A stretch of 64,000 nucleotides of DNA, taken from positions 2,194,242-2,258,241 of the forward strand of contig OZ241847.1 in the NCBI GenBank assembly GCA_965202915.1, given 5' to 3'. This document shows positions 948-17,968 of the stretch, piece after piece. The position numbers and the translations under genes are program-made. The stretch comes from Gammaproteobacteria bacterium (GTDB lineage: Bacteria; Pseudomonadota; Gammaproteobacteria; Eutrophobiales; Eutrophobiaceae). The stretch's first letter is position 1. Each line of letters opens with the position of its first letter. The notes beneath the pieces are model-generated. The model made no database searches. It saw nothing but the letters and a program-made list of their open reading frames with translations, and had not been told where the DNA came from.

Positions 948-1076
948 ATTTTCACTTAATCTGTGAATATATCTCACTGATGGCGTTCGCAATGTTTATC
1001 AGGTGGCTTGTTTAGCCTTAAAGCAGGCACAAACCCTTAGCCCACACAACCGCGCGACAGCCTTTATTCCGGGAGA

Positions 1077-1124
1077 AACATTGGCTGAACGCAACATTGG
1101 CTGAACGCAACATTGGCTCACGCC
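1077..1124. repeat. 16-bp direct tandem repeat, about 3 copies (aacattggctgaacgc x2, then the degenerate aacattggctcacgcc)
   Basis: Read directly from lines 1021-1081. It lies in the divergent intergenic region between the aminotransferase start (947) and the GT-C/TPR gene start (1260). Confidence 0.9.
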
Positions 1125-1259
1125 GGCATTTGCCACGCCACCCCCTATGCCTGGCGGCATACATACCGTTGACGCATCACCATGGGGTCATTAAAATATT
1201 CCCGTGTCGCACTACGGACTGGAATCTTCCCTCACACTTAATAATGAGAATCATCAAAA

Positions 1260-3146
1260 GTGAGTAGGCAATCAAATTTCAATGCCAGAAAACGCGGCAA
1301 CAGGAACCGACGCCGGCAAGCCAAATCGCAACCGGTTTCGCCAACAAGCTCAAAGCCATCAGCGACAATATCAGCAAGGGAAAGTATCCATATTACCCCG
1401 GCGCCGCACGGGCCGGAGTCACCCGTCTCCGCCGCGGCACCGGAAGCCGCCATCGCAACCGTATTCGCGCTGCCGGCACTATGCCTGTTAATCACCCTCA
1501 GTTACCTGCCCGCAACCTGGGCGGGGTTGGTGTGGGACGACGTCGTACTGACGATGGCCCAACCGTTGCAACATCTGTCCGGCCTATGGGATATCTGGTT
1601 CGCGCCCCGTTCCCTTTCCCAGTTTGAGGGACACTACTGGCCGCTTCTCTATACGTCTTTCTGGCTGGAGAATCGATTGTGGGGCGTCACCCCGGTCGGC
1701 TATCATATTGTCAACCTTGTACTACATGGCTTGGTCACAGTACTGCTATGGCGCCTGTTACTAAGGCTGGCCGTTCCCGGTGCCTGGTTTGCGGCGGCGG
1801 TGTTCGCGGTACATCCCCTGCACGTGGAGTCCGTGGCATGGATCATCGGACGCAAGGACGTGCTGGCCTCACTGTTTTATCTGGCCTGCGTGCTGAGTTA
1901 CCTGCATTTCATCGAGGCCCGGCGGCGCCGGTTTTATGCCGCGGCACTGGCACTGTTCATGGCGGGTCTGTTGTGCAAATCCATCCTGGTCACGCTGCCC
2001 GTATCGCTACTGATCTGGCACTGGTGGCAACAGGGGCGCGTGACGCCGGCCGACGTGCGCAGAGTGCTGCCGTTCCTGCTGCTGGGGCTGTGCGTCACGA
2101 TCGCCGACGTCTTGTTCTACAAGAGCAGGGATCCCACCGCCTTTGACTATTCAATCGTTGAACGGCTACTGATCGCGGCGCAGGCATTGTGGTTCTACCT
2201 GGGAAAACTGGTCTGGCCGACGCAACTGGCGGTCATTTACCCGCGCTGGGAGGTCGGCGTCGCCAACCCGCTGGCCTGGGGGTGTTTGATGGCCGCCTTC
2301 GCTGCGGTGGCGGCGCTGTGGTTCGGGCGCCACCGCATCGGTCGGGGGCCGCTGGCGGGTGCACTGTTCTTCGTGGTGACGCTGTCGCCGACGCTGGGCT
2401 TCGTGGACTATGGCTACATGCTGTACTCCTTTGTCGCCGACCGCTACCAATACTTGGCCGGGGCCGGTGTGATTGCAACACTGGCCGCAGCCGTAACCCT
2501 GGGCATGGGCAGACTGCCGGGCGCATACCGGCGCGGAGCGCAGGGCATGGCGGTGCTGCCGCTGGCCGCACTGGGCGTCATCACCTGGAACCAGGCGGGA
2601 ATCTACCGGGACAACTACACTTTTTACAGCCACGTCCTCTCTCTCAACCCGCAGGCCCGCTTCGCCCACCACAGTATCGGCCTGGAGTATCAAAAGCAGG
2701 GCCGCCACGAAGAGGCACTTGCCGCTTTTGAAACCGACTATCGTCTTGCCCCGGAGCAGCCGTCCCCACGGGTGCGCATGAGCAAGGCCCAGACCAGCAT
2801 CGGAACGTCGCTTGCGGCACTGGGCCGGATCCAGGAAGCGGAGGAGCACTTCCGGCGCGGGGTTGAGATCGCCCCGGACTTTCCGGGGGCCTACGATCAT
2901 CTGGGCGGGTTCCTGATCACGCACAAGCGTTACCGGGAGGCCCTCGAAGTTTTTCAAGCCGTCATCACCATAACGCCCGGCAATGCAAGGTTTCACGTCG
3001 GCCTGGGGGTCTCGCAGGCGGGCTTGGGACGGCTGGATGAGGCCTTGCAGAGCTACGAGCGGGCGCTGTTGATAGACCCCTTGCAGGAGCAGGCGCTAAG
3101 CAATCGCGCCAGCCTGTTGAAGTTCAGAGAGAGTGGCGGCGGATAG
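1260..3146 (+). CDS. Polytopic GT-C-fold glycosyltransferase-like protein (TMTC/PMT_2-like) with C-terminal TPR repeats; paralogue of 9789-11648
   Basis: 628-aa ORF with a GTG start. It has multiple hydrophobic segments and a first-loop LVWDD acidic motif. GHYWPLLYTSFWLE...GYHIVNLVLHG and AVHPLHVESVAWIIGRKD are also present. The C-terminal ~170 aa shows TPR-like periodicity (EALAAFE, EAEEHFRRGVEIAPDF, EALEVFQAVI, EALQSYERALLIDP). The region is GC-rich with third codon positions mostly G/C. Confidence 0.75.
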   Translation: MSRQSNFNARKRGNRNRRRQAKSQPVSPTSSKPSATISARESIHITPAPHGPESPVSAAAPEAAIATVFALPALCLLITLSYLPATWAGLVWDDVVLTMAQPLQHLSGLWDIWFAPRSLSQFEGHYWPLLYTSFWLENRLWGVTPVGYHIVNLVLHGLVTVLLWRLLLRLAVPGAWFAAAVFAVHPLHVESVAWIIGRKDVLASLFYLACVLSYLHFIEARRRRFYAAALALFMAGLLCKSILVTLPVSLLIWHWWQQGRVTPADVRRVLPFLLLGLCVTIADVLFYKSRDPTAFDYSIVERLLIAAQALWFYLGKLVWPTQLAVIYPRWEVGVANPLAWGCLMAAFAAVAALWFGRHRIGRGPLAGALFFVVTLSPTLGFVDYGYMLYSFVADRYQYLAGAGVIATLAAAVTLGMGRLPGAYRRGAQGMAVLPLAALGVITWNQAGIYRDNYTFYSHVLSLNPQARFAHHSIGLEYQKQGRHEEALAAFETDYRLAPEQPSPRVRMSKAQTSIGTSLAALGRIQEAEEHFRRGVEIAPDFPGAYDHLGGFLITHKRYREALEVFQAVITITPGNARFHVGLGVSQAGLGRLDEALQSYERALLIDPLQEQALSNRASLLKFRESGGG

Positions 3147-3391
3147 TGCTAAAGGGCTCAAGATAAATATATTCTGCGCGGCAAAGCGGGAACATCGGCC
3201 AATAACACCGAGGAAAGGCATCACACACCACAACCAGATCGTGGCCATTCACGCCGACCAAGAGCGAATGAACCGGCAGGTACTCACACCCCACCTCAAA
3301 AGACCAGTTGTCATTGAACGACATATTCAAGATTCCGATCTTACGATTCGGATGGTTTCGGTGATAATGGTGGGCAGGGGGGCAGGGTCAC

Positions 3392-3841
3392 TCATATTCT
3401 CTTTTGTGGCTTCTCCAGCATTTTTCCAAGCTGATTCAGTTTTCTGTTAAGAAGTTGCCCGTCTTTTAGCTGACATTCCCATATCCGCAATACTTTCCAT
3501 CCGTTGTTTTTAAGCGTCTTGTTTACCAGCCTGTCACGTTTCTTGTTGGCATATATTTTTTTAACCCAAAAATCTCTGTTGTTTTGGGGAACTTGGCCGT
3601 GCTTTGGGCAATCATGCCAGAAACATCCATCCATAAAGATCGCAAGCTTACTGTTTGGAAATACAATGTCTGGCTTGCCGAAAATCGGGTATCTGCGTCG
3701 CCATCCTATCACATGATTTCGCTTCAATATTTTAAGCAGTTTCCCTTCGGTTGATTTGTTTCCAGTAGAACGCACCTTACCCATAATCCATGAACGTTTT
3801 TCTTTTGAATAGACGTCAACCATTTTTCTTGACGTTGTCAA
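3392..3841 (-). CDS. vsr: Very-short-patch repair endonuclease Vsr
   Basis: 149-aa ORF containing GKPDIVFPNSKLAIFMDGCFWHDCPKHG, NRDFWVKKIYANKKRD and GWKVLRIWECQL. Its start overlaps the 3' end of the upstream ORF by 26 nt (3816-3841). Confidence 0.9.
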   Translation of the reverse strand: MTTSRKMVDVYSKEKRSWIMGKVRSTGNKSTEGKLLKILKRNHVIGWRRRYPIFGKPDIVFPNSKLAIFMDGCFWHDCPKHGQVPQNNRDFWVKKIYANKKRDRLVNKTLKNNGWKVLRIWECQLKDGQLLNRKLNQLGKMLEKPQKRI

Positions 3842-5477
3842 GCCTAAACAATAAAAATGAAATTAGACTTAGAATATCAAGGCAACTATTTTCTGGAAAT
3901 AATATATTTGATGTTGTCCTAGGTTCATGGTGCGTTGGATTTCTGAATGCTTGCACCAAACCAACTGAAAGAAATTGTTGACCCCTTTGCATGTTAAGTT
4001 CTGTGTCGTCGGAAAGGTCTGAAATTTGAAGTATTGGAAGCCTGGTTATTGTTGTTCTCCCTCTCTCGTTGTGTGATTCAAAACTAAAAGATTTATGCAT
4101 CAAATCAGTAGATGAATAATTAACACCAGCCTTATCTCTAATTTCCCTTTCATAAATCACCACTCCCTCTTTTGCAGCATCCAGATATCGGGCATTTTTA
4201 TAATCTTCGTACAGTCGATCCCTGATAAGCTGATGCAAATTTCTCCAATGATAATAAGGGTAAGAAGGTATAAGTTTTTTAAACTCGACAAACAGCCGAT
4301 TTGATTCAATAGTTTCTATTTCAGGAAAATCTTCAATCAGTTTTTCAGTAATAACCTCAATACTATTCTGAATTTCCTCCGGCATAGAATTTTTCCAGTC
4401 TTCCAGACCAATATCGCCAAGGCTGTTATCAACCTCGGCTATTTTCTTTTCTTTACGCTTTCTACGCCAATCCAATTGAACGAACTGGACACATTTCTCA
4501 AGATATGTATGAAGTTTGCTAGTTTGTAAATACCCCCAGTTTAGGTTTTGTCTGTTAGTGGAAATTACGTCCTCTGAAAAATCTTCTATAAAATCCACTT
4601 CCAACCATCCCGTCATATAAGAAAAGAAATGACTGGACGTGCTATCAGAAAATTGATAAGGAGATTGCACGAGTTTCCCCCGCGAAAACAAAGAAATACC
4701 CCTTGAATCAAATCTTGGTGCAATGGGCTTTTCAGGCGTAATGATCTTTCCCTGAATCTCAGACCGGTGCTCATAATCTGATTCTATGTTTGAAAAATCC
4801 TCGGGGAAATTCCAAGAAAATTCTTCACCAAATGCGGAGAAGTGCATATCATTGGACAACATTACCGGGTCTTCATCGTTACGCCTTACGGTAACGGAAA
4901 AATCTTCATCGAAAATAAAAAACCTTGCTATGCTGTTGGCAAGAAATTTTTCCGAAAAATCAGATTCTCTATTGATGTTTGTAAGTATTATTTGAGTTCC
5001 GGATTGACCATCTTCAACAATTTTGTCAATTACTTGCGGGATCATTAAATATTTCCCTCTCGTGGAGTTCATTAAATCATCCCAATCCATCGTAAAAATA
5101 TTTCTTTTTCCCTGTTGAACAGTGTTTACGGTAATTGTCCGAACAATCCCAAAGAATGAAAGCTTGCCCAAACCCTTTTTACCGATAACCTTCCTACCTC
5201 TCGGAGTCAACTCTTCTCCATCTTCTCTGCGGTTTCTCCCAATAACAAGAAATTTCTTGTCAATATCATTAAAAGACATTCCTGTTCCATTGTCCGTTAC
5301 AATAATTTCTTTTTCATTAATATCATTCAACTGCACTTCCACTTTTGTGGCATCTGCATCATATGCGTTGGCTAGCAGCTCACTTAAAACCGGAGGAAGA
5401 GTTGAGTACATACGAACTCCAAGGTGCTCTATAACTCTTGGGTCAAACTTCATCGTCAATTGATTAGATTCCAGCAT
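3816..5477 (-). CDS. GHKL (HATPase_c_3/MORC-like) ATPase with a C-terminal TIGR02391 (Hypoth_Ymh)-like domain
   Basis: 553-aa ORF with Bergerat-fold motifs: N-box SELLANAYDA, G1 VTDNGTGM, G2 GKKGLGKLSFFG. The C-terminal ~120 aa (YLDAAKEGVVIYEREIRDKAG...DLMHKSF...QRGQQFLSVGLVQAFRNPTHHEP...LSLISFLLFRLD) matches my recollection of the TIGR02391 pattern. It includes an R-x4-H motif (RNPTHH). Confidence 0.75.
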   Translation of the reverse strand: MLESNQLTMKFDPRVIEHLGVRMYSTLPPVLSELLANAYDADATKVEVQLNDINEKEIIVTDNGTGMSFNDIDKKFLVIGRNRREDGEELTPRGRKVIGKKGLGKLSFFGIVRTITVNTVQQGKRNIFTMDWDDLMNSTRGKYLMIPQVIDKIVEDGQSGTQIILTNINRESDFSEKFLANSIARFFIFDEDFSVTVRRNDEDPVMLSNDMHFSAFGEEFSWNFPEDFSNIESDYEHRSEIQGKIITPEKPIAPRFDSRGISLFSRGKLVQSPYQFSDSTSSHFFSYMTGWLEVDFIEDFSEDVISTNRQNLNWGYLQTSKLHTYLEKCVQFVQLDWRRKRKEKKIAEVDNSLGDIGLEDWKNSMPEEIQNSIEVITEKLIEDFPEIETIESNRLFVEFKKLIPSYPYYHWRNLHQLIRDRLYEDYKNARYLDAAKEGVVIYEREIRDKAGVNYSSTDLMHKSFSFESHNERGRTTITRLPILQISDLSDDTELNMQRGQQFLSVGLVQAFRNPTHHEPRTTSNILFPENSCLDILSLISFLLFRLDNVKKNG

Positions 5478-5489
5478 AATAAAACTATC

Positions 5490-6530
5490 TCAGCCCGAGT
5501 AAAAAGATTTCGCTATTCTGTAAGCAAGTTGCGGTGGCACTGCATTGCCTATTAGCTTGGCTGCGATCATTGAACTTTCACACGCAAAAACATAGTCTTC
5601 GCTGAACGTTTGTAGTGTTGCACCTTCTCTTAGGGACAATCCTCTGTTCTCCTCGGGATGGGCAAATCGACCATTTGAAATCCCGTTAAATCTCGTTGTA
5701 ATTGTTGAAGAGGGTTTATCCCACCTCAATCTCCCATAAACATCCCGAAAAGAATTATCTTTGCCTTTGTAGGTGTTCAATTGAAGCTCGGGGTCGTCTT
5801 TCCATGCGCTCCTTGTCCCGCCGTCTTTGGGTGTTAGCTTGAGCCGTCTCAAATTTTTTTCGGATAACGATGAAACTGTATCCATGAAATTATTTTCATC
5901 CTTATAACCGGATTGCAGAACGGGAAATCCATTATGGGTCCCTATAAATTCCTTCAATACGGATTCTTTCTCCGGTTGGGGAAGATCAATCGATTTTTTT
6001 ACCCTGGAAGCAATCAAGATAAATCTCTTTCTGCTTTGCGGAACTCCATAATACTTGGCATTGATAATATCCTCGACAATCTTATATTCTTTTTCAAGTT
6101 TCCGACAAAATTTGTCAAGCCCACTTTCCGCTTTGTTTCTTTTTATTCCCGGAACATTTTCTATAATTACATAACCCGGTTTGTAGTAACAGACAAAGCG
6201 CCAAAAATGATCAAGCAGTCCTCTGGTGTTCTCCGATGATCTTTTGTTCGTATTCAGGGTGGTCCAGTGCTGGCATGGGCTGCACCCTATAAAGATCAAA
6301 GAGTCGTCATTGCGTTTAATCCCACAATTTTTTTCCAGAAAAGTTCGTGGTGTGTCTTCTATATCTTTTAGAAAAAATTTTGTCCCCGGATGATTTGCCT
6401 CATATGTCTCTTTACAATCCTCATCCACATCTATCCCGGCAACAACCTTTACTCCGGCCATCTTTAACCCTTGGGACATGCCGCCGGCACCGCAAAAAAA
6501 ATCAACCGCTCTTAAGGATTTTTTTCTCAT
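5490..6530 (-). CDS. dcm: DNA (cytosine-5)-methyltransferase
   Basis: 346-aa ORF with the canonical m5C-MTase motifs. These are I DFFCGAGGMSQG, IV GCSPCQHW, VI IIENVPG, VIII QSRKRFILIA and X GNAVPPQLA. Its start overlaps the stop of the upstream ORF (ATGA, 6527-6530). Confidence 0.95.
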   Translation of the reverse strand: MRKKSLRAVDFFCGAGGMSQGLKMAGVKVVAGIDVDEDCKETYEANHPGTKFFLKDIEDTPRTFLEKNCGIKRNDDSLIFIGCSPCQHWTTLNTNKRSSENTRGLLDHFWRFVCYYKPGYVIIENVPGIKRNKAESGLDKFCRKLEKEYKIVEDIINAKYYGVPQSRKRFILIASRVKKSIDLPQPEKESVLKEFIGTHNGFPVLQSGYKDENNFMDTVSSLSEKNLRRLKLTPKDGGTRSAWKDDPELQLNTYKGKDNSFRDVYGRLRWDKPSSTITTRFNGISNGRFAHPEENRGLSLREGATLQTFSEDYVFACESSMIAAKLIGNAVPPQLAYRIAKSFYSG

Positions 6531-8872
6531 TCGCCACCGCCCAAACTGGCTATTAATGTTACTATATGTGCCGCAACCGCGGACGAGGCAGCACGCACGA
6601 CAGAATCTTCGTCATATTCCTCCCGGCCATCGGAATTATCTTCGGAGTCACTGACAAGTCTCTTATACATTGCTAATGTGAGAATGCCCACCCCCACCCT
6701 GAAGCGGTGCCTGATGATCTCTCTCTTACCCTCATCTGATTCTTTGGAAATTAAGTACAAGAGATATTTATTGGCTTTGTTCACATATATGGTTAGCGTT
6801 TCTCCTCTGGACACATGACCGCCCGACTCTTCATTGTAGTTATGTTCATCCCAATATTCTTGCTCCACCCACTCAATATTCGGAAATTCCCGAGCCGGTC
6901 TCTCTTGATTGTTTGTGTCTGTTTCATCCCCGGGCGGGTTTCTTTGAGTTTCTTCCGCACTGGCAATTTTGATCATTACGTCAAAAGTCAGAGGATCTGT
7001 TCTTTCCGGGTTTGAGTCATCAAAGCCAAACTGAACGGCAATTTCATCTCCTACTTTTGCCCCCGCGGGAGTTATGACTTTTATTCGGAATTTTCCATTA
7101 CGCAGAGAACCCGAATGTGGCAATATATCAGGTGATGGGTGAATAAACTCCCCTCGGTTGGCATCTCTTATCAAATAATCATTTTGAGCGTCTGTTCTAC
7201 ATTCAATTCGTCTGTAAGAATTTATGGGAACACTCTTAACATTGCCCTCCTCCAAGTGCGTGGGAGTTAAATATGTGGGGAACAATTTCCCTTCATATTG
7301 ATCCTCACCTCCGGATGTTGCAATCTGACTGTCAACAATACTTCCAACATCAAATAGTTCTTGAAGATCCGGATTATCTTTAACAAGATTGGAAAGAAAT
7401 TCTTTATCGGTCTGCTCTTCTATTTGCTCGCTAATACGACGGTTTTTTATTTCTCTTGCATATTCCCTAAGTTCTCCGCTCCCGGCCAAGGCATCTATAA
7501 TAATTTTCTTTAGTTCTCTCGTGAGCCCTATGTCCGCCATTCTTTCCCTGTCCGATTTAAACACGGCGGCTCGCGCCGTATTATCCATGGCATTACAATC
7601 TATTTGAACAATTAAATGGTTTCTCAAATCATCCAGTCGCGCCTTCCGCAACAGACTGGCTCTGTCCGCAGATTGGGACTGACCGTTGATCGTGTAGAAC
7701 ATTCTGTATGGCTGTTTGCGCAAATAATCCTTCATTTTCTTCAACCCAAAATAAGATATTCGGATAGTCCCCAAATCCGAATTTTCAGAATTTTCAATTA
7801 CGTTTTCCAAGTCAACTTCGCTTTCCTCACTTCTTTCATCATCGGATTTGAGCACTATATTCATACCGGAAAAAGTTCTCGGTGCAATACCCTCCGCTCT
7901 AAGACCGCTCCTTGTGGGTTGAGCATCAAAATCATAAAGACGAACAGGCAAGGCACAATTTATAAGGTTGGTCGTAAGCGCATCATATAGTCCTATATCA
8001 ACCGCACGGGCACGAGGCCCTATATCGTATTCATATAACTTCACAATGCTGCCACCATTGATGACGACACCGATATCCTCTCTGCCAAAAGCCTTGATTT
8101 CATCGGTTTCAAAACAGGCAATTTCTCCGTCGGGACAAAAATACTCAACCACTGGCAAATCCTCTCCTTCTCGAACTCCTCTTACCCTTATCAAAGTCCA
8201 TCCCCATAGACCATCCGAACCGTAAGTGGTTCTTTTGGACAGAATAAACTTATACATCCCCGCCCTGATATCTGCTCGGGTACAAAAAGGTATGGATCCG
8301 GTGCTACCCATATTAAATCGACCTTGGACAAACGGAATGCCTTCCTTATTCTTTTCTCCAAGAGATAAAAAAGTTTTTCCAAAATCTGTATGATTTTGCC
8401 CCTCACCAAAATCAACTATCGTATAGTTTGGACAAATATCATTTCTCCTTCCTGTTCTCTTAATACCAATCAAAACACTTTTTTCAGCCAGATCAGTCCT
8501 TTGATTCGGGCTTAACAAAGCCAACCTGCCTTCTTGAACTTTGGGGAAAAAGTGTTTGACAGCCTCGCTCATATCTTGGGGAGCTGATTCACCATAAAAA
8601 TCTATTTGCTCTTCCTTTGCCCTGCGCATAAGGATTGCGTCAATGGAATTAATGATTAACTCTGCCAACGCACCGACTGGTTGGCTCGTTTGGACGCTCA
8701 CCCTGTCCCAATTTTTATCCGCGCCGCCGTAAGGCTTCCAATTTTCATCAGCGCTAAATTCAGGCTGGCTTTCCATGAACCGATTAACGTCGTCGGCTGA
8801 CAAAGCACCGAGAAACTTATTCGCTATTAACTTTGAAAGTGGGCTGTTGAAAAATTTTCTCGAATCATTCAT
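6527..8872 (-). CDS. Large uncharacterised protein with a divergent N-terminal GHKL/Bergerat ATPase-like region
   Basis: 781-aa ORF and the first gene of the AT-rich operon. Candidate motifs are N-box LAELIINSIDA, G1 IVDFGEGQ and G2 QGRFNMGSTGS (about aa 68-200). I recognise no motifs in the remaining ~550 aa, which end in an acidic tail (SDSEDNSDGREEYDED). Confidence 0.6.
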   Translation of the reverse strand: MNDSRKFFNSPLSKLIANKFLGALSADDVNRFMESQPEFSADENWKPYGGADKNWDRVSVQTSQPVGALAELIINSIDAILMRRAKEEQIDFYGESAPQDMSEAVKHFFPKVQEGRLALLSPNQRTDLAEKSVLIGIKRTGRRNDICPNYTIVDFGEGQNHTDFGKTFLSLGEKNKEGIPFVQGRFNMGSTGSIPFCTRADIRAGMYKFILSKRTTYGSDGLWGWTLIRVRGVREGEDLPVVEYFCPDGEIACFETDEIKAFGREDIGVVINGGSIVKLYEYDIGPRARAVDIGLYDALTTNLINCALPVRLYDFDAQPTRSGLRAEGIAPRTFSGMNIVLKSDDERSEESEVDLENVIENSENSDLGTIRISYFGLKKMKDYLRKQPYRMFYTINGQSQSADRASLLRKARLDDLRNHLIVQIDCNAMDNTARAAVFKSDRERMADIGLTRELKKIIIDALAGSGELREYAREIKNRRISEQIEEQTDKEFLSNLVKDNPDLQELFDVGSIVDSQIATSGGEDQYEGKLFPTYLTPTHLEEGNVKSVPINSYRRIECRTDAQNDYLIRDANRGEFIHPSPDILPHSGSLRNGKFRIKVITPAGAKVGDEIAVQFGFDDSNPERTDPLTFDVMIKIASAEETQRNPPGDETDTNNQERPAREFPNIEWVEQEYWDEHNYNEESGGHVSRGETLTIYVNKANKYLLYLISKESDEGKREIIRHRFRVGVGILTLAMYKRLVSDSEDNSDGREEYDEDSVVRAASSAVAAHIVTLIASLGGGE

Positions 8873-8924
8873 TTATGAAAATTCACCTAGGTTTTGGTAT
8901 TTAATCAGTACATATCCATAACCG

Positions 8925-9300: not shown

Positions 9301-9788
9301 ATTAGCTCCCTCTACAATCCAGGTATTTCCCAACGCCTGTCCTTCCAGAACACCTATCGACCAAACCATCGGTTACTGACAGAACAACATCTACGGACGT
9401 GGCGACAGCGGTAATTGGGTTATCATGGAATCATCCGATTCACACCATCTCCAGAATATACGGGCGGCAGCATCGGACACTTCCTTGGGTATGTGTGCTA
9501 CCCGCACCTCCAATTAACACGGCCGAGTTGAGAATGTGAACCAAGTATTTCGTTGGTAATTACCCCACATCCTTCGACTTATCAGGTAATGAGACAAGAC
9601 TCGGCAAGGTTACGGGACTTCCCCGGTCACCGTCTGTGCACAATCTTATAATGCTTTTCTGCGAAAATTATGAGGATTGTGTAAAATCCTCTCTTGTATA
9701 GGATTAGGATACCCTCTTGCCACACTTCAGACTGAAATCTGCCTTCTCCTCAAGAAAGGAGTGGCGCAAGGTGAACAGATAATCGGAT

Positions 9789-11648
9789 ATGGCGGCCCGA
9801 AAAAACCGAAACAAGGCCCGGCGCAGGCAAATGAAGCTGCAAACCACCGCCAGGCGCCCCGGCACGGTGCGTAGCCGGACCGGCCCCGTACCCATCAAAT
9901 CGTCGCCGGGCGGGTTGCAATCGCTTTTTTCCGGGCTCAAGCGGAGCGTACTTCACGGGGACCCGATCCCACCCGCACTCGCGGCCACGGCGCTGTGGCT
10001 GCTGATACTCATCAGTTACCTGCCCGCGACCTGGGCCGGTTTCGTGTGGGACGACTTCGCGTTCACGGAGGCCGAACAGGTACTGCGCCCATCCGGTCTT
10101 TGGGATATCTGGTTCAAGCCGCACTCGCTGCAGAATGAAGGCCATTACTGGCCGCTCCTCTATACGACCTTCTGGCTGGAGCACAAGTTGTGGGGGCTGG
10201 ACCCGACCGGTTATCATATCGTCAACCTGCTGCTGCACGGGTTGACCACGCTGTTGTTGTGGCGCCTGCTGCTGCGGCTGGCCGTGCCGGGCGCCTGGTT
10301 CGCGGCGGCGGTGTTCGCCGTGCACCCCCTGCACGTGGAGTCGGTGGCATGGGTTATCGGACGCAAGGACGTGCTGGCGGGGCTGTTCTCCGTGGCCTGC
10401 GTGCTGAGCTATCTGCGTTTCGTGGAAGCTGGTCGCCGCGCACGCTATACGCACTACTTTCGGGCACTGGCGCTGTTCGTGGCGGGACTGTTGAGCAAAT
10501 CCATTGTCGTCACCCTGCCGGTGTCGCTGTTGATCTGGCACTGGTGGAAGCAGGGTCGCGTAGCCGTGACCGACGCACTGAGGACGCTGCCGTTCCTGCT
10601 GCTGGGGCTCGGCATCACGATCATCGACTGGTGGTACTACAAGGACCGGGAAGAGATTGTCCTGGAGGACTACTCGTTGATCGAGCAGACGCTGAACGCG
10701 GCGCACGCGCTGTGGTTCTACGTTGGCAAACTGGTCTGGCCGGCGGAACTGGCAGTCATCTACCCGCGCTGGGAAATCAACGTCAGCGAGCCACTGGCCT
10801 GGGCGTATCTGGTCACCGCCGTCGCGGTGGTGTGGCTGCTGTGGTTCTACCGCGACCGCATTGGCCGGGGGCCGCTGGCGGGGGTGCTGTTCTTCGTGGT
10901 GACGCTATCACCGACCCTGGGGTTCGTCGAGTACGGTTTCATGCAGTTCTCGCTGGTCGCCGACCGCTATCAGTACCTGGCCGGGATCGGAGTGACGGCG
11001 GGCCTCGTGGCCGCCGCGGCCCGCGTTGCAGGCCGGCTGTCGGGTACGCCGGCGAGGGGCGTACAGGCCGCGGCGGTGCTGCTGCTGGTCGTGCTGGGAA
11101 CCATCAGTTGGAACCAGGCGGGCATCTACCGCGACAACTTCACGTTCTACCAGCATATCATCGCTCTCAACCCGCAGGCCAGGAACGCCTGGTACAACCT
11201 TGGCAGAGAGTATTCCATGCAGGGCCGCACGCAGGATGCGCTGGCCGCGTATCTCACCGCCGGCGAGCAGCGCCCCGACCACGTCTGGGCGCATATCGGC
11301 GCCGGGCAGATGGCCGCGGAACTGGGAAGGCTCGCCGAGGCGGAGATGTACCTGCAACGCGCGCTTGCGGTTGACCCGAGTTTCCCGGAAGCCCTCAACA
11401 ATATGGGAGCGCTGCGGCTCAGACAAAAACGCTACAGCGAGGCGCTCGAACTCTTTGAGACCCTGATTGAGATGCAGCCCGAGTACGCCAAGGTTTATTC
11501 TGGCATAGGCGTGGCCCTGGCCGGACTCAGGCGGTTTGAAGAGGCGTTGCGGAGTTTTGACCGCGCGCTTGAACTGGACCCGTCACTGGAAGAGGCGCGG
11601 GTCAACCGCGAGCACGTATTGCGGAACTCCAAAAGCGAGAGCAGGTAA
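9789..11648 (+). CDS. Polytopic GT-C-fold glycosyltransferase-like protein (TMTC/PMT_2-like) with C-terminal TPR repeats; paralogue of 1260-3146
   Basis: 619-aa ORF that is colinear with the 628-aa protein. Shared blocks include ISYLPATWAGFVWDD, GHYWPLLYTTFWLE, LLWRLLLRLAVPGAWFAAAVFAVHPLHVESVAW, RIGRGPLAG.LFFVVTLSPTLGFV and WNQAGIYRDN. The TPR tail is more divergent. Its stop overlaps the next start (TAATG at 11646-11650). Confidence 0.8.
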   Translation: MAARKNRNKARRRQMKLQTTARRPGTVRSRTGPVPIKSSPGGLQSLFSGLKRSVLHGDPIPPALAATALWLLILISYLPATWAGFVWDDFAFTEAEQVLRPSGLWDIWFKPHSLQNEGHYWPLLYTTFWLEHKLWGLDPTGYHIVNLLLHGLTTLLLWRLLLRLAVPGAWFAAAVFAVHPLHVESVAWVIGRKDVLAGLFSVACVLSYLRFVEAGRRARYTHYFRALALFVAGLLSKSIVVTLPVSLLIWHWWKQGRVAVTDALRTLPFLLLGLGITIIDWWYYKDREEIVLEDYSLIEQTLNAAHALWFYVGKLVWPAELAVIYPRWEINVSEPLAWAYLVTAVAVVWLLWFYRDRIGRGPLAGVLFFVVTLSPTLGFVEYGFMQFSLVADRYQYLAGIGVTAGLVAAAARVAGRLSGTPARGVQAAAVLLLVVLGTISWNQAGIYRDNFTFYQHIIALNPQARNAWYNLGREYSMQGRTQDALAAYLTAGEQRPDHVWAHIGAGQMAAELGRLAEAEMYLQRALAVDPSFPEALNNMGALRLRQKRYSEALELFETLIEMQPEYAKVYSGIGVALAGLRRFEEALRSFDRALELDPSLEEARVNREHVLRNSKSESR

Positions 11649-13414
11649 TGGCGAAACGGAAAAACCCCCGCCCCGCCACTCGCCGGCGCCGACAACCTGG
11701 GGCAGCGGCGCCGACAACGGCAACGATGCCCTGGCGGTGGCGCGCGGGCGACGCCTTATTTGCCGCCGACCGCCCGCGGCTCGCCGGCGACGGCGAACAC
11801 TGGACGTATTTCTGGCCGCTGCTGGGCGCGGCCCTGCTGCTGCGCGCTGCCATCGCCCTGTGGGGTGACTTTGTGCTGCATCCGGACGAGATCATGCAAT
11901 ACCTGGAGCCGGCCCACTATGTGGCCTTCGGCAATGGCGTCCTCTACTGGGAATATCTCCACGGCGCACGCAGCTGGCTGATCCCGGGCGCGATCGCCGG
12001 CGTGCTGAAGGCGCTGGATGGCTTGGGGCTGGCGCAGCCGGCCATCTATATCGCCGTGGTGAAACTGTTGTTCTGCCTGCTGTCGCTGTCGGTGCCGTGG
12101 GCCATGTACCGCTTCACGCAAATCACGGTCAACGAGCGATCTGCTCGGCTGGCGCTGATCTTCGGCTGCTTCTGGTACGAACTGGCGGCGCTGGCGCACA
12201 AACCCTTCACCGAATTGTTCAGCACTTCCATTTTCATGGTCGTGCTCGCTCTGTCCGTGGGCAGGGAAGCGGAAAGACCCGCCAGGCTGTTTGCCATCGG
12301 CCTGCTGGCGGCACTCAGCGGTGCGGTGCGCCTGCAGTACGCACCCGTGGCGTTGCTGCTGTTGTTGCTGCGCTCGGTATCCCTGCGCAACGGCGTTGCC
12401 GGGCTGGTGTCGTTATGGGCGGGCGCCGGGCTGCTGACGCTGCTAGTGGGTATCTTCGAATGGCAGACCTGGGGGGCGCCGTTTCATTCCTACCTGAGCA
12501 ACTTCTTTATCAATCTCGCCATTGACCCCGCACGCGCCGGTGAATCAAGCCGATGGCTTCTGTTGGGGCAGTTGGCCGCGGCCAGCGGCGGCATGGCACT
12601 GATCGCCTTTGCCGCTGCGCTGCCCAGGGGGCGGCGGCATCTGCTCATCCTGGTGACGAGCGCGGTGATACTCGTCCTGCACCTGCTCCCGGAGCATCGC
12701 GAATACCGCTTCATCCACGTCCTGATCCCGTGCTGGTTGATGCTGCTGGCGGCCTGGATCGCGCGCTGGGGCGACGGATTGTCCGGCGAACGAGGCCGGA
12801 TATCCGCACTGGCGCGGCGCTGGGGCGCGGCGGCGGTGCTGGCCTTCGGCATCCCAGCCCTACTCAATGCGTTTCCCTGGCAGAGCCGGGTGTACCAGAG
12901 TTTCTCCGTGGAAAAACCGGTGTACTACTTGCGCAATCAGGACCCGATATTTGAGATCATGTCTTTCCTGGCCGCCCAGGACGACGTGCACGGAGCTCTC
13001 TACCATACCCGGGAATACAACGCATACTTCAGCACTGGCGGCTATTACTACCTGCACCACGACGTCCCTTTCTATACCGCGCAAGACACCTGGCAAACCA
13101 TCAGGGAACGGCACCCGGCGGTGCCTCAGGAATCGTTGGTTTCCCATATCGTGACCGAGGCCGACGGCCCCGCCATCCAGGGGTTCGAACGACTGCTCCG
13201 GCGTGGAAACCTGGCGCTGTGGCGGCGCCGGGACAACGACAGTGCAGTCCCCCGCTGGCGCGAGCACGTGATCAAGGTAAGCCATGCGGACCTAAACGAC
13301 CTGGTGAGCAGAACCATGCGGCGCCTGAACGCCTCTTCCATGCTCGACCTTTTCGTAGCCGATGACTTGTACTGGGTGGAGGCGCCACCGTTGTTTGAGT
13401 CGGCGGATGAATAA
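11648..13414 (+). CDS. GT-C mannosyltransferase-like membrane protein (GT22 / PIG-B-ALG9-like)
   Basis: 588-aa polytopic ORF. Its first-loop motif LHPDEIMQYLEPAHYVAFGNGVLYWEYLHGARSWLIPG matches the PDE..Q.LE.AH...FG.G.LTWE...G.RS pattern of Dol-P-Man-dependent GT22 enzymes. It is translationally coupled to the upstream gene. Confidence 0.65.
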   Translation: MAKRKNPRPATRRRRQPGAAAPTTATMPWRWRAGDALFAADRPRLAGDGEHWTYFWPLLGAALLLRAAIALWGDFVLHPDEIMQYLEPAHYVAFGNGVLYWEYLHGARSWLIPGAIAGVLKALDGLGLAQPAIYIAVVKLLFCLLSLSVPWAMYRFTQITVNERSARLALIFGCFWYELAALAHKPFTELFSTSIFMVVLALSVGREAERPARLFAIGLLAALSGAVRLQYAPVALLLLLLRSVSLRNGVAGLVSLWAGAGLLTLLVGIFEWQTWGAPFHSYLSNFFINLAIDPARAGESSRWLLLGQLAAASGGMALIAFAAALPRGRRHLLILVTSAVILVLHLLPEHREYRFIHVLIPCWLMLLAAWIARWGDGLSGERGRISALARRWGAAAVLAFGIPALLNAFPWQSRVYQSFSVEKPVYYLRNQDPIFEIMSFLAAQDDVHGALYHTREYNAYFSTGGYYYLHHDVPFYTAQDTWQTIRERHPAVPQESLVSHIVTEADGPAIQGFERLLRRGNLALWRRRDNDSAVPRWREHVIKVSHADLNDLVSRTMRRLNASSMLDLFVADDLYWVEAPPLFESADE

Positions 13415-13654
13415 AAGTTTGTGGTCACGATCTTACACGGGCAGCCCGATGCCGATACCGTTCGCAGGTGTGGCCCACCGGGCCAGGTGGTCGGCGATGC
13501 TTTCCGACCCCATGGAGCCCCGCGCGGCCCCGGAATAGTCTTCGCAACCGCTCATTGGTTTGCCGGCGACAATATGGCACACTCTCCGGCAGTTTGATTG
13601 TAATGTTGATCCTGTCTTTTGATTTGCTTTTTCATTGCTTTAGGAGGCCCGCCC

Positions 13655-14404
13655 ATGTCCAAAAACCTAAGCGACTTTTCAACCCTGAGCCTGGACTGCT
13701 ATGGCACACTCATTGACTGGGAGACTGGCATTTGGGACGCGCTACAGCCCCTGATCCGGCGATCCGGACGAGACGACGTCGTGCGCCGCCAAGGACTCGA
13801 GGCGTTCGCCCGATTTGAAAATGCCCGCGAAATGGAGACACCGGAGCTGCCCTACCCGGAGATTTTGCAACGAACCCACGCCGACGTGGCGGCCTACCTG
13901 GGAATGACCACCTCGGTGGAACTGGACCGCGAGTTTGCCTGCTCCATCGCCCACTGGCCGGCCTTTGCCGACACCGCCGACGCGCTGCGCCGCCTGCGGA
14001 AGCACTATAAACTGGTGATCCTGTCCAACGTCGACCGGGCCGGATTCGCCGCCTCGGCGACCAAGCTCGGCGTCGCCTTTGACGCCGCCTACACAGCGGA
14101 AGATATCCGCTCCTATAAACCCGCCGCCGCCAACTTCCACTACCTGATCGAACATCTCCAGGCCGATCTCGGCGTTAAGCGCGAAGCCATCCTGCACACC
14201 GCCCAGAGCCTGTTCCACGACCACGCACCGGCCAACGCCTTCGACCTCGCCAACGTCTGGATCGACCGCCAGGGGCTGTCGCATAGCGACAACTGGGGCG
14301 CCACCGCCAGGCTCGACAAGCGCCCCGACGTGGACTTCCTGTTCCCGACCCTGGCGGCGATGGCGGACGCAGTGGAAGGGGAGGTCGAGCCGCCCCAGGG
14401 TTGA
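13655..14404 (+). CDS. HAD-superfamily hydrolase, haloacid dehalogenase type II-like
   Basis: An internal ATG of the 261-aa ORF is preceded by AGGAGG. Motifs are LSLDCYGTLIDWE (DxYGT nucleophile motif), ILSNVD, SYKP and the C-terminal DH/D region. Confidence 0.75.
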   Translation: MSKNLSDFSTLSLDCYGTLIDWETGIWDALQPLIRRSGRDDVVRRQGLEAFARFENAREMETPELPYPEILQRTHADVAAYLGMTTSVELDREFACSIAHWPAFADTADALRRLRKHYKLVILSNVDRAGFAASATKLGVAFDAAYTAEDIRSYKPAAANFHYLIEHLQADLGVKREAILHTAQSLFHDHAPANAFDLANVWIDRQGLSHSDNWGATARLDKRPDVDFLFPTLAAMADAVEGEVEPPQG

Positions 14405-14712
14405 AAGCGGTCATGCACTGTACCAGTTAAGGATATAAATCCAGTGGTGGGTCTGGTACCTGGCGTCGTTCCTGATTCCGCACTGATGGCGGGGCGGGGA
14501 GCAAGTGCACAGCAGGGGCCAGGACTGAACACTTCGGCAGTGGGTGCTGCCTGGCGTCTTGCTGGTTGTACAAACGCGCCGGTGCCACGTTGCTGGCGGT
14601 GCTGCTTCCCACCAATTGCGCCGCCGGGACATTTTTAATGAACTATGTCCACAAAAAATTCACTTGTCCGAGCGAAAGCTTTGTAGTGCCCGCCCTGGTG
14701 CGCGAGATTCAC

Positions 14713-15643
14713 TTACCCGTTCGCCATTGTGGAGACGGTCGTGTATCTGCGCGCGAGTGCCGCACGAGAGACACGGTGTTCGTCGACCAGTGGCGGGATT
14801 CCCCGATGTTGCCGTATTACTTGAGCGGTCAACTCATTTTCTGCTGCGGCCTGGGACACTACACCAGACTGCCCGGTGACCTTGTATAGGGTGATATCCT
14901 CGCGCACTTGCTCCAACAGATAGAATTCCATCCGGGCATGGTTGAAAGCGAAGCGATCTCCTGACCGGTTGTTGAACACCAGCTTGGAGAGCGCAATGTT
15001 GACGACTACCAGCGCGGCCAAAATTGTCAGTATCCAGTGATTAGACAGCCCTAGCCTGCAAACCACGGCAAACCCCTTGAGATGGGTCGGATTTCGACCC
15101 TGTGCGTAAACCAGCGTCAGCAGCAGAATCAAAAGAAAAAGCAGCACGTGTAAGGAATACACCTTCTGGATAATGGACTGCGACCAGAATAGCTTGGAAA
15201 ACCCGTAGGCGAAGCCGGCCATGTAGCCGCCGAGGCGGCCGCCCGTCAGGTGGACCGCCACCAGATATAGCACCGCGCAGGCCGCCGCGCCCAAAAGGGC
15301 GCTCAATATGTTGCCGGCCAGCGGGCGCGAAAGCAACGGCAGGTGGGCGAACGGGAAGCACAACATGCTGTACAGCGGGTAACCCGGCGGGTGCACTGGT
15401 TGGCCGTAGTGGCAAATCAGGTTGAAGATCGCTGCGTCTTCGTAGGTGACGACACGGGGCATCGTGGCCAGATATACGATAAAAAGCCCGGTAAACACGG
15501 CCAGAGGGGGGGCAGCCCTGTCCTTCGATGTTATCGCGTAATGAAAACAAGCTAACCGTAGCGGCGTTGCGCACCCTGTCTTGGGACTGGGGGCGCACCT
15601 TACCCGAACGGGTACGGTTTTTTCTTTTACTCTTTCTGCGCAT
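14713..15643 (-). pseudogene. DUF2723/TMEM260-like GT-C membrane protein, reading frame broken at a C7 homopolymer (pseudogene, phase variant or sequencing error)
   Basis: The 261-aa ORF (14713-15498) carries YEDAAIFNLICHYGQPVHPPGYPLYSML, the DUF2723 first-loop signature. Its frame stays open upstream (..KDRAAPPLAVFTG..). A basic N-terminus MRRKSKRKNRTRSGKVRPQSQ...EGQGCPP lies in another frame, starting at 15643. Removing one C from the C7 run joins the two frames. Confidence 0.6.
15506..15512. repeat. Homopolymeric G7 (C7 on the coding strand) tract at the frameshift point of the DUF2723-like gene
   Basis: Read directly from line 15481 (ccagaggggg ggcagccc). Confidence 0.9.
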
Positions 15644-15656
15644 GGTGCCTACCCAA

Positions 15657-15956
15657 CTACAGTCCCTTTTTGGCAAATACTATCACGTCTGATGCTGTAC
15701 CCGCTCGAATCGGCTCGCCTGAACGGGAGGGCGGAATGATTGTAATGTCGACTATGATGTCGCGTGTTTCATCCGGGCGGTTTTGTTGAATCTCGTCTTT
15801 TATGATTTGTATGTCCAGCCGGATCAACGGTTTATTCAGGTCAAAGATTTTCGCCAATTGGTAGCAAACGTCGCCGTCAAAGAATAAATCTTTGCGGTCT
15901 GTCTCAACCTCATATTGGGGGTTATAATGGTCTTGAGTTCGTTTTGCTTGGCACAA
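15657..15956 (-). CDS. Hypothetical protein (99 aa, TTG start), ending 13 nt upstream of the DUF2723-like gene start
   Basis: Supported only by the ORF and its operon-like spacing. I recognise no motif in it. Confidence 0.3.
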   Translation of the reverse strand: MCQAKRTQDHYNPQYEVETDRKDLFFDGDVCYQLAKIFDLNKPLIRLDIQIIKDEIQQNRPDETRDIIVDITIIPPSRSGEPIRAGTASDVIVFAKKGL

Positions 15957-16039
15957 TCGTAATATTTACTCAGTAGTGGACCAATCCACCGCTGTTTTTT
16001 CTTTGATAATACTCTGCACTTTTTTGATTGGATATAGCG

Positions 16040-16215
16040 AGTTCAAGGATGTGTTTGACTCACTGCTAAAAGACAACCCTATCTTCCACATGTCCCGACA
16101 AGCGGCCCTATTCAACCAAAAACTGGCTGACACGTCCCCGCATCGGGGTTGGCTACCCAAATACAACGCCATCCGACCTCATAAAGGAGTTGGACTCAAA
16201 ACACCCGTATGGATT
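16040..16215 (+). mobile_element. Transposase C-terminal remnant (rve/DDE integrase-core tail, IS3/IS481-like)
   Basis: The 96-aa ORF contains ...GWLPKYNAIRPHKGVGLKTPVW. This matches the W..YN..RPH..LG.KTP tail typical of DDE transposases. No catalytic core or terminal inverted repeats were seen. Confidence 0.45.
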
Positions 16216-16329
16216 ACTATCGATAACAACAAAATTTATACAATATGTGGTGGACCCCATACATAGAGTAGTAGAAATATCGCTATGTGGGAGTATATAT
16301 GCAGATAAGGCATAGGGAGTTTCCTAATA

Positions 16330-17304
16330 ATGAAATTAGATGAATTAAATAAATACAGAAGGCTAATACTCATTATTAGTGTTATTGCCTTTTCTCTTTT
16401 GTTAATTGGTGTGTCTGAGGTCTTTCTAGCCAGATATATGGGCCTGGGTGAGCCTGTACTTTATGACTCATCTCCAATATACGGGTATAGGCCATTGCCT
16501 GGAAAAACATACTCTAGATTTTATGGAAAGGAGGTAAAGTTTAATAATCTGGGGCTAAGGTCTGAATCTGATTGGAACGAAGATATTGAAGATAAAATAC
16601 TTTTTCTTGGTGATTCCGTAACTTATGGAGGTTCTTATATTAGCAATACGGAATTGTTTTCTTATCTATCTGTAAAAAATCTGGGAAACAATTACGTTAG
16701 CGGGAATGCCGGGGTAAATGCATGGGGGGTTGAAAATATATATGGTCTTATTGTCGAGTCAGGGTTCATGCCCGCGGGAATTTACGTCACAGTTATTCCA
16801 GAATCTGATTTTTACAGAGGCTTGACTAGAATACACGGGCTCCCTTTCTATAATGAGGATCCAAAATATGCTTTTCAGGAGCTATTTGATTATTTTATTA
16901 TTAATAAAAATAATAATAAGCGATACAAAGGTTGGCAACACTATGCTGATAAAAACACAAAGGCTTTCGTTATAGAAAAAGCAGTGAAAAAACTAAAGAT
17001 GATCGATGTATTGTTAAAGGAAAAGGGGTATAAGCACTTAATCTTTATTTCTCCCAAAAAAAGGCAAGTGATAAAACATTTGGAGAAAGATCTTCTGAAA
17101 AAAGATCCATTGGTTAAAAAATTTCTAACGAAACATGGGCTGTTTCCTTTCTATATAAAAGATGAAATAAATAAGCTTGATTTATTGAGGGAGGAAATAG
17201 AGGGTATCTATCATGGCGACCATGACAACATACATCTTTCAGAAAAGGGCCATAGGCTCTGGGCAAGGATTATAACAAATAAGTTACAAGAGTTACTGCT
17301 TTAG
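16330..17304 (+). CDS. Membrane-anchored SGNH/GDSL-family hydrolase-like protein
   Basis: 324-aa ORF in a very AT-rich stretch, with an N-terminal TM segment (LILIISVIAFSLLLIGV). Block I is ILFLGDSVTYGG, with GNAGVNAWG following. Block V is HGDHDNIHLSEKGH. Confidence 0.7.
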   Translation: MKLDELNKYRRLILIISVIAFSLLLIGVSEVFLARYMGLGEPVLYDSSPIYGYRPLPGKTYSRFYGKEVKFNNLGLRSESDWNEDIEDKILFLGDSVTYGGSYISNTELFSYLSVKNLGNNYVSGNAGVNAWGVENIYGLIVESGFMPAGIYVTVIPESDFYRGLTRIHGLPFYNEDPKYAFQELFDYFIINKNNNKRYKGWQHYADKNTKAFVIEKAVKKLKMIDVLLKEKGYKHLIFISPKKRQVIKHLEKDLLKKDPLVKKFLTKHGLFPFYIKDEINKLDLLREEIEGIYHGDHDNIHLSEKGHRLWARIITNKLQELLL

Positions 17305-17593
17305 TTGGCGTTAAGCCCTGGGTTGGCAGCTAACGATTGCGGGTTTTATTCTGTCGCCATGGGGTCGCTTTGTTGGACAATATATTGCATTAATCTCAAC
17401 AAGTTAATCGCAACCAAAGAATCATTTGGCAACGTATTATCATAATAATTATCTTTCCATTCATAGGGTTATTGTACCGATTTACTTGGCCTGGCTGTAT
17501 AAGCTCAGAAACATATTGCGGGCAATATCCTCGGCGTATATCATGTCATCGTGTGTGACGTTCCGCTATCGCAAGACAACCAGGATAAACAAT

Positions 17594-17935: not shown

Positions 17936-17968
17936 CCTGGCCCGTCCCGGCAATAAAGATGCGGCTTT

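Follow-up and report, generated by a model that had tools for sequence, protein, structure and literature searches.

The window analysed here is a 64,000-nt stretch of contig OZ241847.1 (assembly GCA_965202915.1, positions 2,194,242 to 2,258,241 of the forward strand) from a bacterium of the gammaproteobacterial family Eutrophobiaceae. Near its left end it carries a GC-rich cluster of glycosyltransferase (GT) genes which is interrupted by an AT-rich cassette with genes of a putative restriction-modification (RM) system. We consider it highly likely that the region 1260-17572, located between a native aminotransferase gene and the HIT-znuBCA genes, was acquired horizontally and goes back to two or more sources, and probable that the composite of cluster and cassette was formed before it entered this genome. 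An initial annotation of the same DNA had proposed at least two independent, nested acquisitions. The data bear out two distinct origins, one inside the other, but not two separate arrivals in this chromosome.

The compositional mosaic on which that proposal was based is real. GC content amounts to 62.1% in 1260-3146, 42.0% in 3147-9400, 46.9% in 9401-9788, 62.3% in 9789-15650, 43.9% in 15651-16329 and 34.9% in 16330-17304, compared to 50.9% in the remaining 46.7 kb of the window (17305-64000), where 500-bp windows have a standard deviation of 3.5% and range from 38.8% to 61.2%. The GC content of third codon positions (GC3) agrees with these large steps: the GC-rich genes show the G/C-dominated third positions that had been described for them (GC3 0.71-0.82), the genes of the AT-rich cassette have values of 0.34-0.43 and the open reading frame (ORF) at 16330-17304 has 0.335, while housekeeping and core genes mostly have 0.48-0.59, with one at 0.67. 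The signature, which we compared by dinucleotides, points the same way. In every compartment, the distance to the remainder of the window exceeded the maximum of 200 size-matched background chunks (120 vs. 96, 138 vs. 55, 106 vs. 58 and 102 vs. 72 for the four compartments). The steps coincide with gene boundaries, as claimed: the stop codon of a 628-aa gene ends at position 3146, and the ATG of a 619-aa gene is at 9789. Two details need correction. The stretch 9400-9788 is intermediate rather than AT-rich, and the right GC-rich block is not uniform, since 14450-15650 has only ~55-58% GC. This section consists of pseudogene debris from the same cluster, which accounts for its lower and uneven GC content.

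The features of the cluster and of the cassette are as follows (comparison loci and contigs carry L numbers):

1260-3146, plus strand: GC-rich gene 1 ("628-type"), coding for a 628-aa membrane protein, probably of the GT-C type (PMT_2-like), with C-terminal TPR repeats (GC3 0.75).
3147-9788: AT-rich insert of 6642 bp in place of a 69-bp spacer (by comparison with L007 and L009).
3392-3841, minus strand: Vsr very-short-patch repair endonuclease (TIGR00632, 115.6 bits vs. a cut-off of 97.85; PF03852).
3816-5477, minus strand: 553-aa paraMORC-type GHKL ATPase with a C-terminal Ymh domain, TIGR02391 (HATPase_c_3, E = 1.8e-22; Hypoth_Ymh, E = 5.4e-19).
5490-6530, minus strand: C5 cytosine DNA methyltransferase of the Dcm type (PF00145, E = 5.9e-52; TIGR00675, 138.1 bits vs. 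a cut-off of 100.65).
6527-8872, minus strand: 781-aa protein of an unannotated family, invariably encoded beside dcm; a divergent GHKL ATPase (MORC/MutL-like) whose C-terminal domains are beta-sandwiches.
8952-9265, minus strand: hemB', a decayed 3' fragment of a porphobilinogen synthase gene (HemB residues ~192-316), just upstream of the 781-aa gene.
9398-9468: non-coding block common to the window and the insert of L006 (L006 13177-13245; local alignment).
9789-11648, plus strand: GC-rich gene 2 ("619-type"), coding for a 619-aa GT-C/TPR paralog of gene 1 (62% aa and 74% nt identity).
11648-13414, plus strand: membrane mannosyltransferase family protein of GT22, Alg9-like (PF03901, 91.6 bits vs. 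a cut-off of 23.8).
13619-14404, plus strand: GC-rich gene for a HAD type II-like hydrolase, likely start at ~13655 (TIGR01428, 119.8 bits vs. a cut-off of 125.4; GC3 0.79).
14448/14449: strain breakpoint, beyond which L005 continues into nadB-rpoE-rseAB-degP (blastn and gene list of L005).
14533-14886, plus strand: inverted fragment of a cluster gene, with 46% aa identity to a 213-aa ORF beside the TMEM260-like gene in L009 (tblastn).
14872-15504, minus strand: pseudogene of a TMEM260-like O-mannosyltransferase, internally deleted and truncated (PF11028, 63.6 bits).

The initial annotation had overlooked that both GC-rich blocks hold paralogs of one cluster and that the hemB fragment belongs to the cassette. 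The distribution of the cluster was examined by scanning the 628-aa protein against a species-representative set with one genome per prokaryotic species. This resulted in 73 related loci, the window's own genome not being among them, and all 73 are from sponge-associated metagenome-assembled genomes (MAGs). They are scattered over more than eight phyla or classes (Nitrospirales, Poriferihabitaceae, Porifericomitaceae, Latescibacterota, Gemmatimonadota, Acidobacteriota, Binatia, Alphaproteobacteria and others). The order 628-type, 619-type, GT22, on one strand, is seen in L007 (a gammaproteobacterial locus of the Poriferihabitaceae) and in L009 (Nitrospirales); a convergent TMEM260-like gene is encoded further on in L009 and in L006 (Porifericomitaceae). 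In L007 and L009, orthologs of the 619-aa protein (71-72% aa identity) directly follow the 628-type gene; in L006 they come after a 1.38-kb insert. GT22 orthologs (65-68% aa identity) come after the 619-type gene in L006, L007, L009 and L063.

L007 and L009 show 98.4% DNA identity over 5438 bp, which is exactly the extent of the three genes. There is no match between their flanks, and the left flanks match loci from their own taxon (L014 for L009, L013 for L007). The fact that near-identical DNA is embedded in unrelated flanks indicates that the GC-rich cluster has moved recently between phyla; near-identical DNA in unrelated genomes, or a distribution incongruent with taxonomy, is one of the marks of a horizontally acquired genomic island. 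The cluster of L006 is ~95% identical to those of L007 and L009, and the cluster of the window is ~76% identical to all three. The chromosomes which carry L006, L007 and L009 are MAGs with adjacent accession numbers. Genes of the family also stand out in composition elsewhere, with 63% GC vs. 50% in the flanks in Ca. Spongiihabitans thiooxidans and 65% vs. 50% in a Pseudohongiella MAG.

The cassette keeps its GC content (40.5-43.3%) in seven genomic contexts, the flanks of which range from 47.5% to 62%. Nitrospirales and Arenicellales carry the cassette, and Porifericomitaceae have a remnant of it. At the DNA level, the similarity of the window cassette to other copies extends from inside hemB' to just past vsr (~3261-9259). 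In L081 (Arenicellales) and L093 (Poriferihabitaceae), which are syntenic over 8.6 kb, the gene order is adk, intact hemB, ~60 bp of spacer, a 781-type gene, dcm, a 553-type gene, a GBBH-like gene, ubiE and ubiB. To judge from this synteny, the interval between adk-hemB and ubiE-ubiB looks like the conserved place of the cassette in Arenicellales. L080 (Ca. Spongiihabitans sp.) and L092 carry the cassette in unrelated surroundings with a short hemB fragment immediately upstream of the 781-type gene. The copy in L094 lacks hemB and has small HTH_23 ORFs on both sides. These ORFs (HTH_23/HTH_28; L094 4491-4766 and 10497-10721) possibly correspond to transposase N-termini and are the sole hint of a mobilising element that we encountered. 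The genome of L009 has its own copy (L079, Nitrospirales), with the order 778-dcm-vsr and devoid of the 553-aa gene, so that the 781-family protein is the constant partner of the methylase. As a separate observation, L080 carries a single gene with both an N6_N4 methyltransferase and an HNH domain between sufB and sufC (L080 2028-3263), inside the suf operon.

The decayed hemB fragment that the initial annotation had recognised is confirmed. A translation hand-stitched from two frames matches the ALAD profile (PF00490) with E = 4e-8 at positions 210-312 of 317 and is thus not a full-length ALAD; tblastn with intact HemB proteins places the fragment at ~8952-9265 on the minus strand. Fragments of hemB adjoin the cassette in the window, L080, L092 and L006, and intact hemB genes are found ~60 bp upstream in L081 and L093. 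Because the cassette lies just downstream of intact hemB in the latter two, we regard hemB' as flanking DNA which was carried along from a former location of the cassette, and not as a decayed local gene.

The nesting can be resolved precisely. In L007 and L009, 69 bp separate the stop codon of the 628-type gene from the ATG of the 619-type gene. Similarity between these loci and the window ceases within ~10-20 nt past the end of the 628-aa gene and is found again from the ATG of the 619-aa gene onward, with 6642 bp in between. The 69-bp spacer thus represents the "empty" site for the inner cassette. L006 has an insert in the same spacer and orientation (L006 11931-13309, 1.38 kb, 45% GC), which contains a gene for an HNH_2 endonuclease, ~80 nt from the start of a 781-family gene, an intergenic stretch of ~60 bp and a hemB fragment; the region of hemB' and the 781 start is ~71% identical to the home copy L081. 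In addition, the inserts of L006 and the window share the ~70-nt block at 9398-9468. Its alignment score is 42, compared to 17.5 +/- 2.1 for shuffled sequences, and none of 1000 shuffles scored as high. The region 9300-9788, including this block, was tested as a further decayed part of hemB and is not detectable as such. No similarity to the insert of the window, to that of L006 or to hemB was found in the spacer of L007 and L009.

Because what is left of this insert in L006 occupies the same spacer and points the same way, the nesting probably predates the arrival in this genome. We favour a single old insertion into the GT cluster over independent insertions; the composite would then have spread and would have decayed in L006. 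This we hold to be likely, with some reserve. The simplest reading for L007 and L009 is that their branch lost the insert of the composite or never received it. Near-identical GT clusters also differ by other insertions: in L009, a 930-aa ORF (15647-18439, ~3.4 kb) is located between GT22 and the TMEM260-like gene. With this ORF and the insert of L006, the intergenic spacers of the cluster seem to gather foreign DNA.

Chimeric assembly had been raised as a possible cause of the junctions at 3147, 9400 and 9789. It is excluded there by L005, a separately assembled 389-kb contig of a sister strain from another sample, which crosses these inner junctions: it is collinear with window positions 1-14448 (L005 18856-4423, blastn) at 98.9% identity. 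Contigs from a separate pipeline correspond to window positions 1-6674 (L004, 100%) and 15014-22131 (L003, 99.97%), although their read set may be that of the window genome itself. Positions 14449-15013 are covered by the window only. At 14448, L005 departs from the window, and contig L001 joins the HIT gene to Rrf2-suf at 17573. These arrangements show that 14449-17572 is strain-specific and marks a rearrangement breakpoint. Because cluster-derived debris continues in the window beyond 14448, the window likely has the older arrangement at the right end of the island. A third arrangement at the breakpoint upstream of HIT is seen in L002 (JGI 3300000051 Botbay15_c000866). At 11304/11325 of this contig, the sequence that precedes HIT (window 17478) continues into window position 24413 running downward, which fits a ~6.9-kb tandem duplication or circle, or an old mis-assembly.

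From these data, the following scheme can be proposed, in which we infer the direction and order of transfer. The host would be a gammaproteobacterial sponge symbiont with 51% GC and a genome of ~2.5 Mb, probably a relative of the Arenicellales. A GC-rich cluster (628-type, 619-type, GT22 and the now decayed TMEM260-like gene) would move between phyla of sponge symbionts. The AT-rich cassette (Vsr, 553-aa protein, Dcm, 781-aa protein) would leave its site between hemB and ubiE, taking the 3' end of hemB along, and would settle together with hemB' in the short 628/619 spacer of the GT cluster. The composite of 628-type gene, cassette with hemB', and 619-type and GT22 genes would most likely have existed before it entered this lineage, by a presumed mode of integration that placed it between the aminotransferase gene and HIT-znuBCA. 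Its right end would subsequently have decayed and would now abut the strain-specific AT-rich junction at the rearrangement breakpoint.

Such a pre-formed composite must be weighed against two separate acquisitions in this lineage, with the GC-rich cluster arriving first, the RM cassette and hemB' entering its spacer later, and the insert of L006 being independent. Uninterrupted clusters do exist in L007 and L009, the insert of L006 could be recent given that its GT genes are 95% identical to these uninterrupted clusters, and the cassette relocates alone (L080, L092, L094). This course of events is plausible but appreciably less probable, as the 69-bp spacer would have had to receive an insert twice independently, both times in one orientation and with the hemB' end beside the 619-type gene. 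Moreover, the inserts of the window and L006 share non-coding DNA beyond hemB' (score 42 vs. 17.5 +/- 2.1), and insert divergence (~71% identity between L006 and L081) is similar to that of the GT genes (~76% between the window and L006). That two distantly related genomes agree in site and orientation might alternatively reflect a preferred target, so that the cassette would repeatedly enter the 628/619 spacer, either site-specifically or guided by hemB' or some other short stretch of homology. Although the copies in L080 and L092 also retain part of hemB directly in front of the 781-family gene and the copy in L094 has its HTH_23 ORFs on both sides, we consider this unlikely: there is no recombinase in or beside the cassette, target duplications and terminal repeats are lacking, the copies in L080, L092 and L094 are at unrelated sites, and the spacer of L007 and L009 resembles neither hemB nor either insert.

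Explanations that dispense with the transfer itself fare worse. The GC-rich genes encode polytopic membrane proteins rich in Ala, Leu and Arg, and RM genes are often AT-rich, so that amino acid content or selection might have shaped the composition of vertically inherited genes. We consider this very improbable, as the contrast is largest at synonymous third positions (0.71-0.82 and 0.34-0.43 vs. 0.48-0.59), as near-identical DNA is found across phyla, and as the GC content of the cassette is constant across hosts with 47.5-62% GC. An artefact of assembly or binning, which would have joined a high-GC to a low-GC organism, is conceivable for a metagenome with many co-resident symbionts bearing related GT genes, and one section (14449-15013) is represented in the window only. 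Its probability is negligible in view of L005, which is from another strain and sample and is collinear over both inner junctions, and of L003 and L004, which match at 99.97% and 100% after assembly by a separate pipeline. Furthermore, the sequences to either side of 14448 go back to one and the same cluster of the donor type (GT22 to the left, fragments of the TMEM260-like gene and the 213-aa ORF to the right).

Several results weigh against a pre-formed, horizontally acquired composite. Scans of positions 1-20000 for tRNAs and Rfam families returned nothing, the repeat search revealed neither flanking direct repeats nor terminal repeats at the junctions, and no integrase or other integration signature was found at any junction apart from a sub-threshold rve_3 relic. 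The empty site that the initial annotation expected in related genomes was not found in the host lineage when searched via aminotransferase homologs. L005, the sole close relative, shows this mosaic too, and in two relatives with 76-77% aa identity in the aminotransferase the neighbouring genes differ (secG/tpiA in the first, a polysaccharide cluster in the second). No vector came to light: IMG/VR contains no member of the GT family, and relatives of the 781 family reach only 25-30% identity there and 22-27% on plasmids, while the phage collection has none. The HAD hydrolase gene is GC-rich yet absent from the GT clusters examined, as tblastn gave no match in the 73 loci. Finally, the assignment of a restriction component in the cassette is tentative, since the score for the BbrUII/HgiDII model stays under its cut-off and the copy from Nitrospirales does without the 553-aa gene. 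On balance, we maintain that the composite was most likely formed before it entered this lineage.

A further-reaching idea is more speculative, and we hold it to be rather doubtful: both modules may circulate among unrelated sponge symbionts, the GT cluster as a transferable symbiosis determinant and the hemB'-tagged cassette as a discrete defence module, with the 781-aa protein being a new methylation-dependent restriction effector. If so, the GT cluster would modify surface or secreted proteins, and the cassette of Dcm, Vsr and two MORC-type ATPases would repeatedly settle in the spacer of the cluster, or ride with it.

The paralogous 628- and 619-aa proteins each combine a polytopic N-terminal domain with C-terminal TPR repeats (TPR_1 and TPR_2 with E values down to 1e-27 in the 628-aa protein). 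The PMT_2 match of the 628-aa protein is slightly below the Pfam cut-off (23.4 vs. 26.1 bits); among the aligned family members, 30 of 33 match PMT_2 at E <= 1e-3, the best at 1.6e-11. A D93-D94 pair is invariant in all 33 sequences, and we take it to be the acidic (DD/DE) motif that follows the first transmembrane helix in GT-C enzymes. When the model of the 628-aa protein was compared to the PDB (Foldseek), matches were dominated by the TPR part, with nothing on the membrane domain, and a PDB sequence search gave the same picture. By architecture, both proteins resemble TMTC-like GT-C/TPR glycosyltransferases, an activity which is predicted. The TMEM260-like ORF is considered a pseudogene because a 792-aa homolog from L009 aligns only at residues 59-247 (72%) and 423-497 (44%).

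All GC-rich cluster proteins (628-type, 619-type, GT22 and TMEM260-like) have a polybasic N-terminus (MSRQSNFNARKRGNRNRRRQ, MAARKNRNKARRRQ, MAKRKNPRPATRRRRQ, MGRKNKRKNRRQ) with the alignment consensus MAxRKxxxKxRRR. It is encoded at window positions 1260-1340, 9789-9850, 11648-11710 and ~15600-15645 (minus strand), and in L009 from 21061 downward. This N-terminus is possibly a topology or targeting signal.

The four cassette genes (vsr, 553, dcm, 781) are tightly packed on the minus strand. The likely function is 5-methylcytosine (m5C)-based restriction-modification, in which Vsr would repair the T:G mismatches that arise from 5-methylcytosine deamination. An independent gene call gives vsr a length of 143 aa (3392-3823). 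The 553-aa protein scores 224 bits vs. a cut-off of 550 with NF050001 (BbrUII/HgiDII), covering residues 8-379 only, and matches the PADLOC model REase_II with E = 3.9e-32. The 781-aa protein has no match in Pfam, NCBIfam or PADLOC. It shows the Bergerat-fold ATPase plus a transducer-like module of MORC/paraMORC GHKL ATPases. No nuclease fold was recognised in its model, and no nuclease domain was identified in the 553-aa protein either. The 781-aa family has ~351 members, none of those listed having a functional annotation. Another ORF of 781 aa in the window (29022-31367) was considered as a relative and rejected, as it codes for an MMPL transporter. GTCGAC occurs 10 times in the 64-kb window vs. 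12.1 expected, and other palindromes were counted too; this sample is too small to inform on the avoidance of restriction sites.

Distant homologs of the 781-aa protein (24-26% identity) are encoded on a Hymenobacter plasmid (L085, NZ_CP110137.1) and a Halogeometricum plasmid (L086, NC_014731.1). Their neighbours are genes for a tyrosine recombinase, SIR2, DUF262, a PAPS-reductase-like protein, or a DNA methyltransferase, which ties the wider family to defence islands in bacteria and haloarchaea.

The features at the edges of the island are:

1-945, minus strand: class III aminotransferase, native left flank, cut by the window edge (six-frame translation; gene call in L004 with Aminotran_3).
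16040-16215, plus strand: possible relic of a DDE-transposase C-terminus, a weak match (rve_3, E = 0.003, 17.8 bits vs. a cut-off of 26.5).
16330-17304, plus strand: 324-aa ORF, very AT-rich (34.9% GC), with a sub-threshold Lipase_GDSL match only (E = 0.005).
17572/17573: right boundary, where collinearity with L001 (99.1%) begins just upstream of the HIT gene (blastn).

The aminotransferase is considered native because its neighbours are retained in relatives: an Arenicella-like one (L082, 77% aa identity) keeps the order aminotransferase-AlaDH-LysR, and another (L084, 76%) keeps aminotransferase-LysR but lacks AlaDH. On the right side, the HIT gene (17594-17935, HIT domain match) and znuBCA, in this order beyond 17573, are considered native because of their collinearity with L001. 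The 324-aa ORF also occurs in the same-strain contig L003, while L001 has Rrf2-suf adjoining HIT instead. The transposase relic of the initial annotation is at best tentative, as the sub-threshold rve_3 match spans only the last 20 profile positions and not the rve-type catalytic core. Between the GC-rich debris and this relic lies a 99-aa ORF with no family match (15657-15956, minus strand). Upstream of island gene 1, the intergenic region has a perfect 16-nt tandem duplication (1077-1108; two copies of AACATTGGCTGAACGC and a partial third copy). For the annotation of the genome, 1260-17572 should be treated as accessory DNA, with the pseudogenes marked as such.

The locus is a well-resolved instance of a known phenomenon, gene sharing among symbionts. 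Lateral transfer of RM and TPR genes is known from statistical surveys, and this locus provides an example resolved to the base pair, in which a whole GT cluster is shared at 95-98% DNA identity by Nitrospirales and two gammaproteobacterial orders and in which the hemB fragment of the cassette points to a conserved location elsewhere, downstream of hemB. It also flags predicted TMTC-like, GT22 and TMEM260-like enzymes, the 628-type family having been found in sponge-symbiont genomes only, and a putative MORC-like Dcm partner of 781 aa. What somewhat raises the value of an otherwise fairly ordinary case is the cross-phylum cluster, together with the hitch-hiking hemB fragment and a MORC-like protein that lacks annotation.

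Eukaryotic TMTC1-4 and TMEM260 are protein O-mannosyltransferases of the GT-C/PMT clan (PMC7801869, PMC10214176). The 628- and 619-aa proteins share with the TMTCs a polytopic, putatively PMT_2-like N-terminus, the invariant DD pair and C-terminal TPRs; the pseudogene in their neighbourhood carries a TMEM260-like Pfam domain, and the same cluster encodes a GT22 (Alg9-like) enzyme. The two proteins differ in being bacterial and much shorter, in having no DUF1736 match and, for the 628-aa protein, in the sub-cut-off PMT_2 score, so that they are likened to TMTCs by architecture. With type II m5C RM systems that include Vsr, the cassette shares a Dcm-type methylase, Vsr and a HATPase_c_3 protein in one tightly packed cluster on a single strand. 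At its N-terminus, the 553-aa protein is similar to the BbrUII/HgiDII family, from which it differs by its low score and its Ymh C-terminus. ParaMORC ATPases have been linked to RM systems (Iyer et al., 2008, as cited in PMC8011034); here, in contrast, a second, unannotated MORC-like ATPase of 781 aa is the invariant methylase partner.

Among sponge symbionts, enrichment and lateral transfer have been reported for RM systems and for TPR and other eukaryote-like repeat proteins (Robbins et al., 2021; PMC8163846). In the limited literature searched, we found no description of a GT cluster with a nested defence cassette, or of this GT cluster in sponge symbionts. Like the islands reported by Robbins et al., the one described here has an atypical composition, a patchy spread across phyla within sponge symbionts, and RM and TPR cargo. 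Unlike those, it has no integrase, tRNA gene or repeats at its borders, and its GT cluster with a nested defence cassette is resolved to the base pair.

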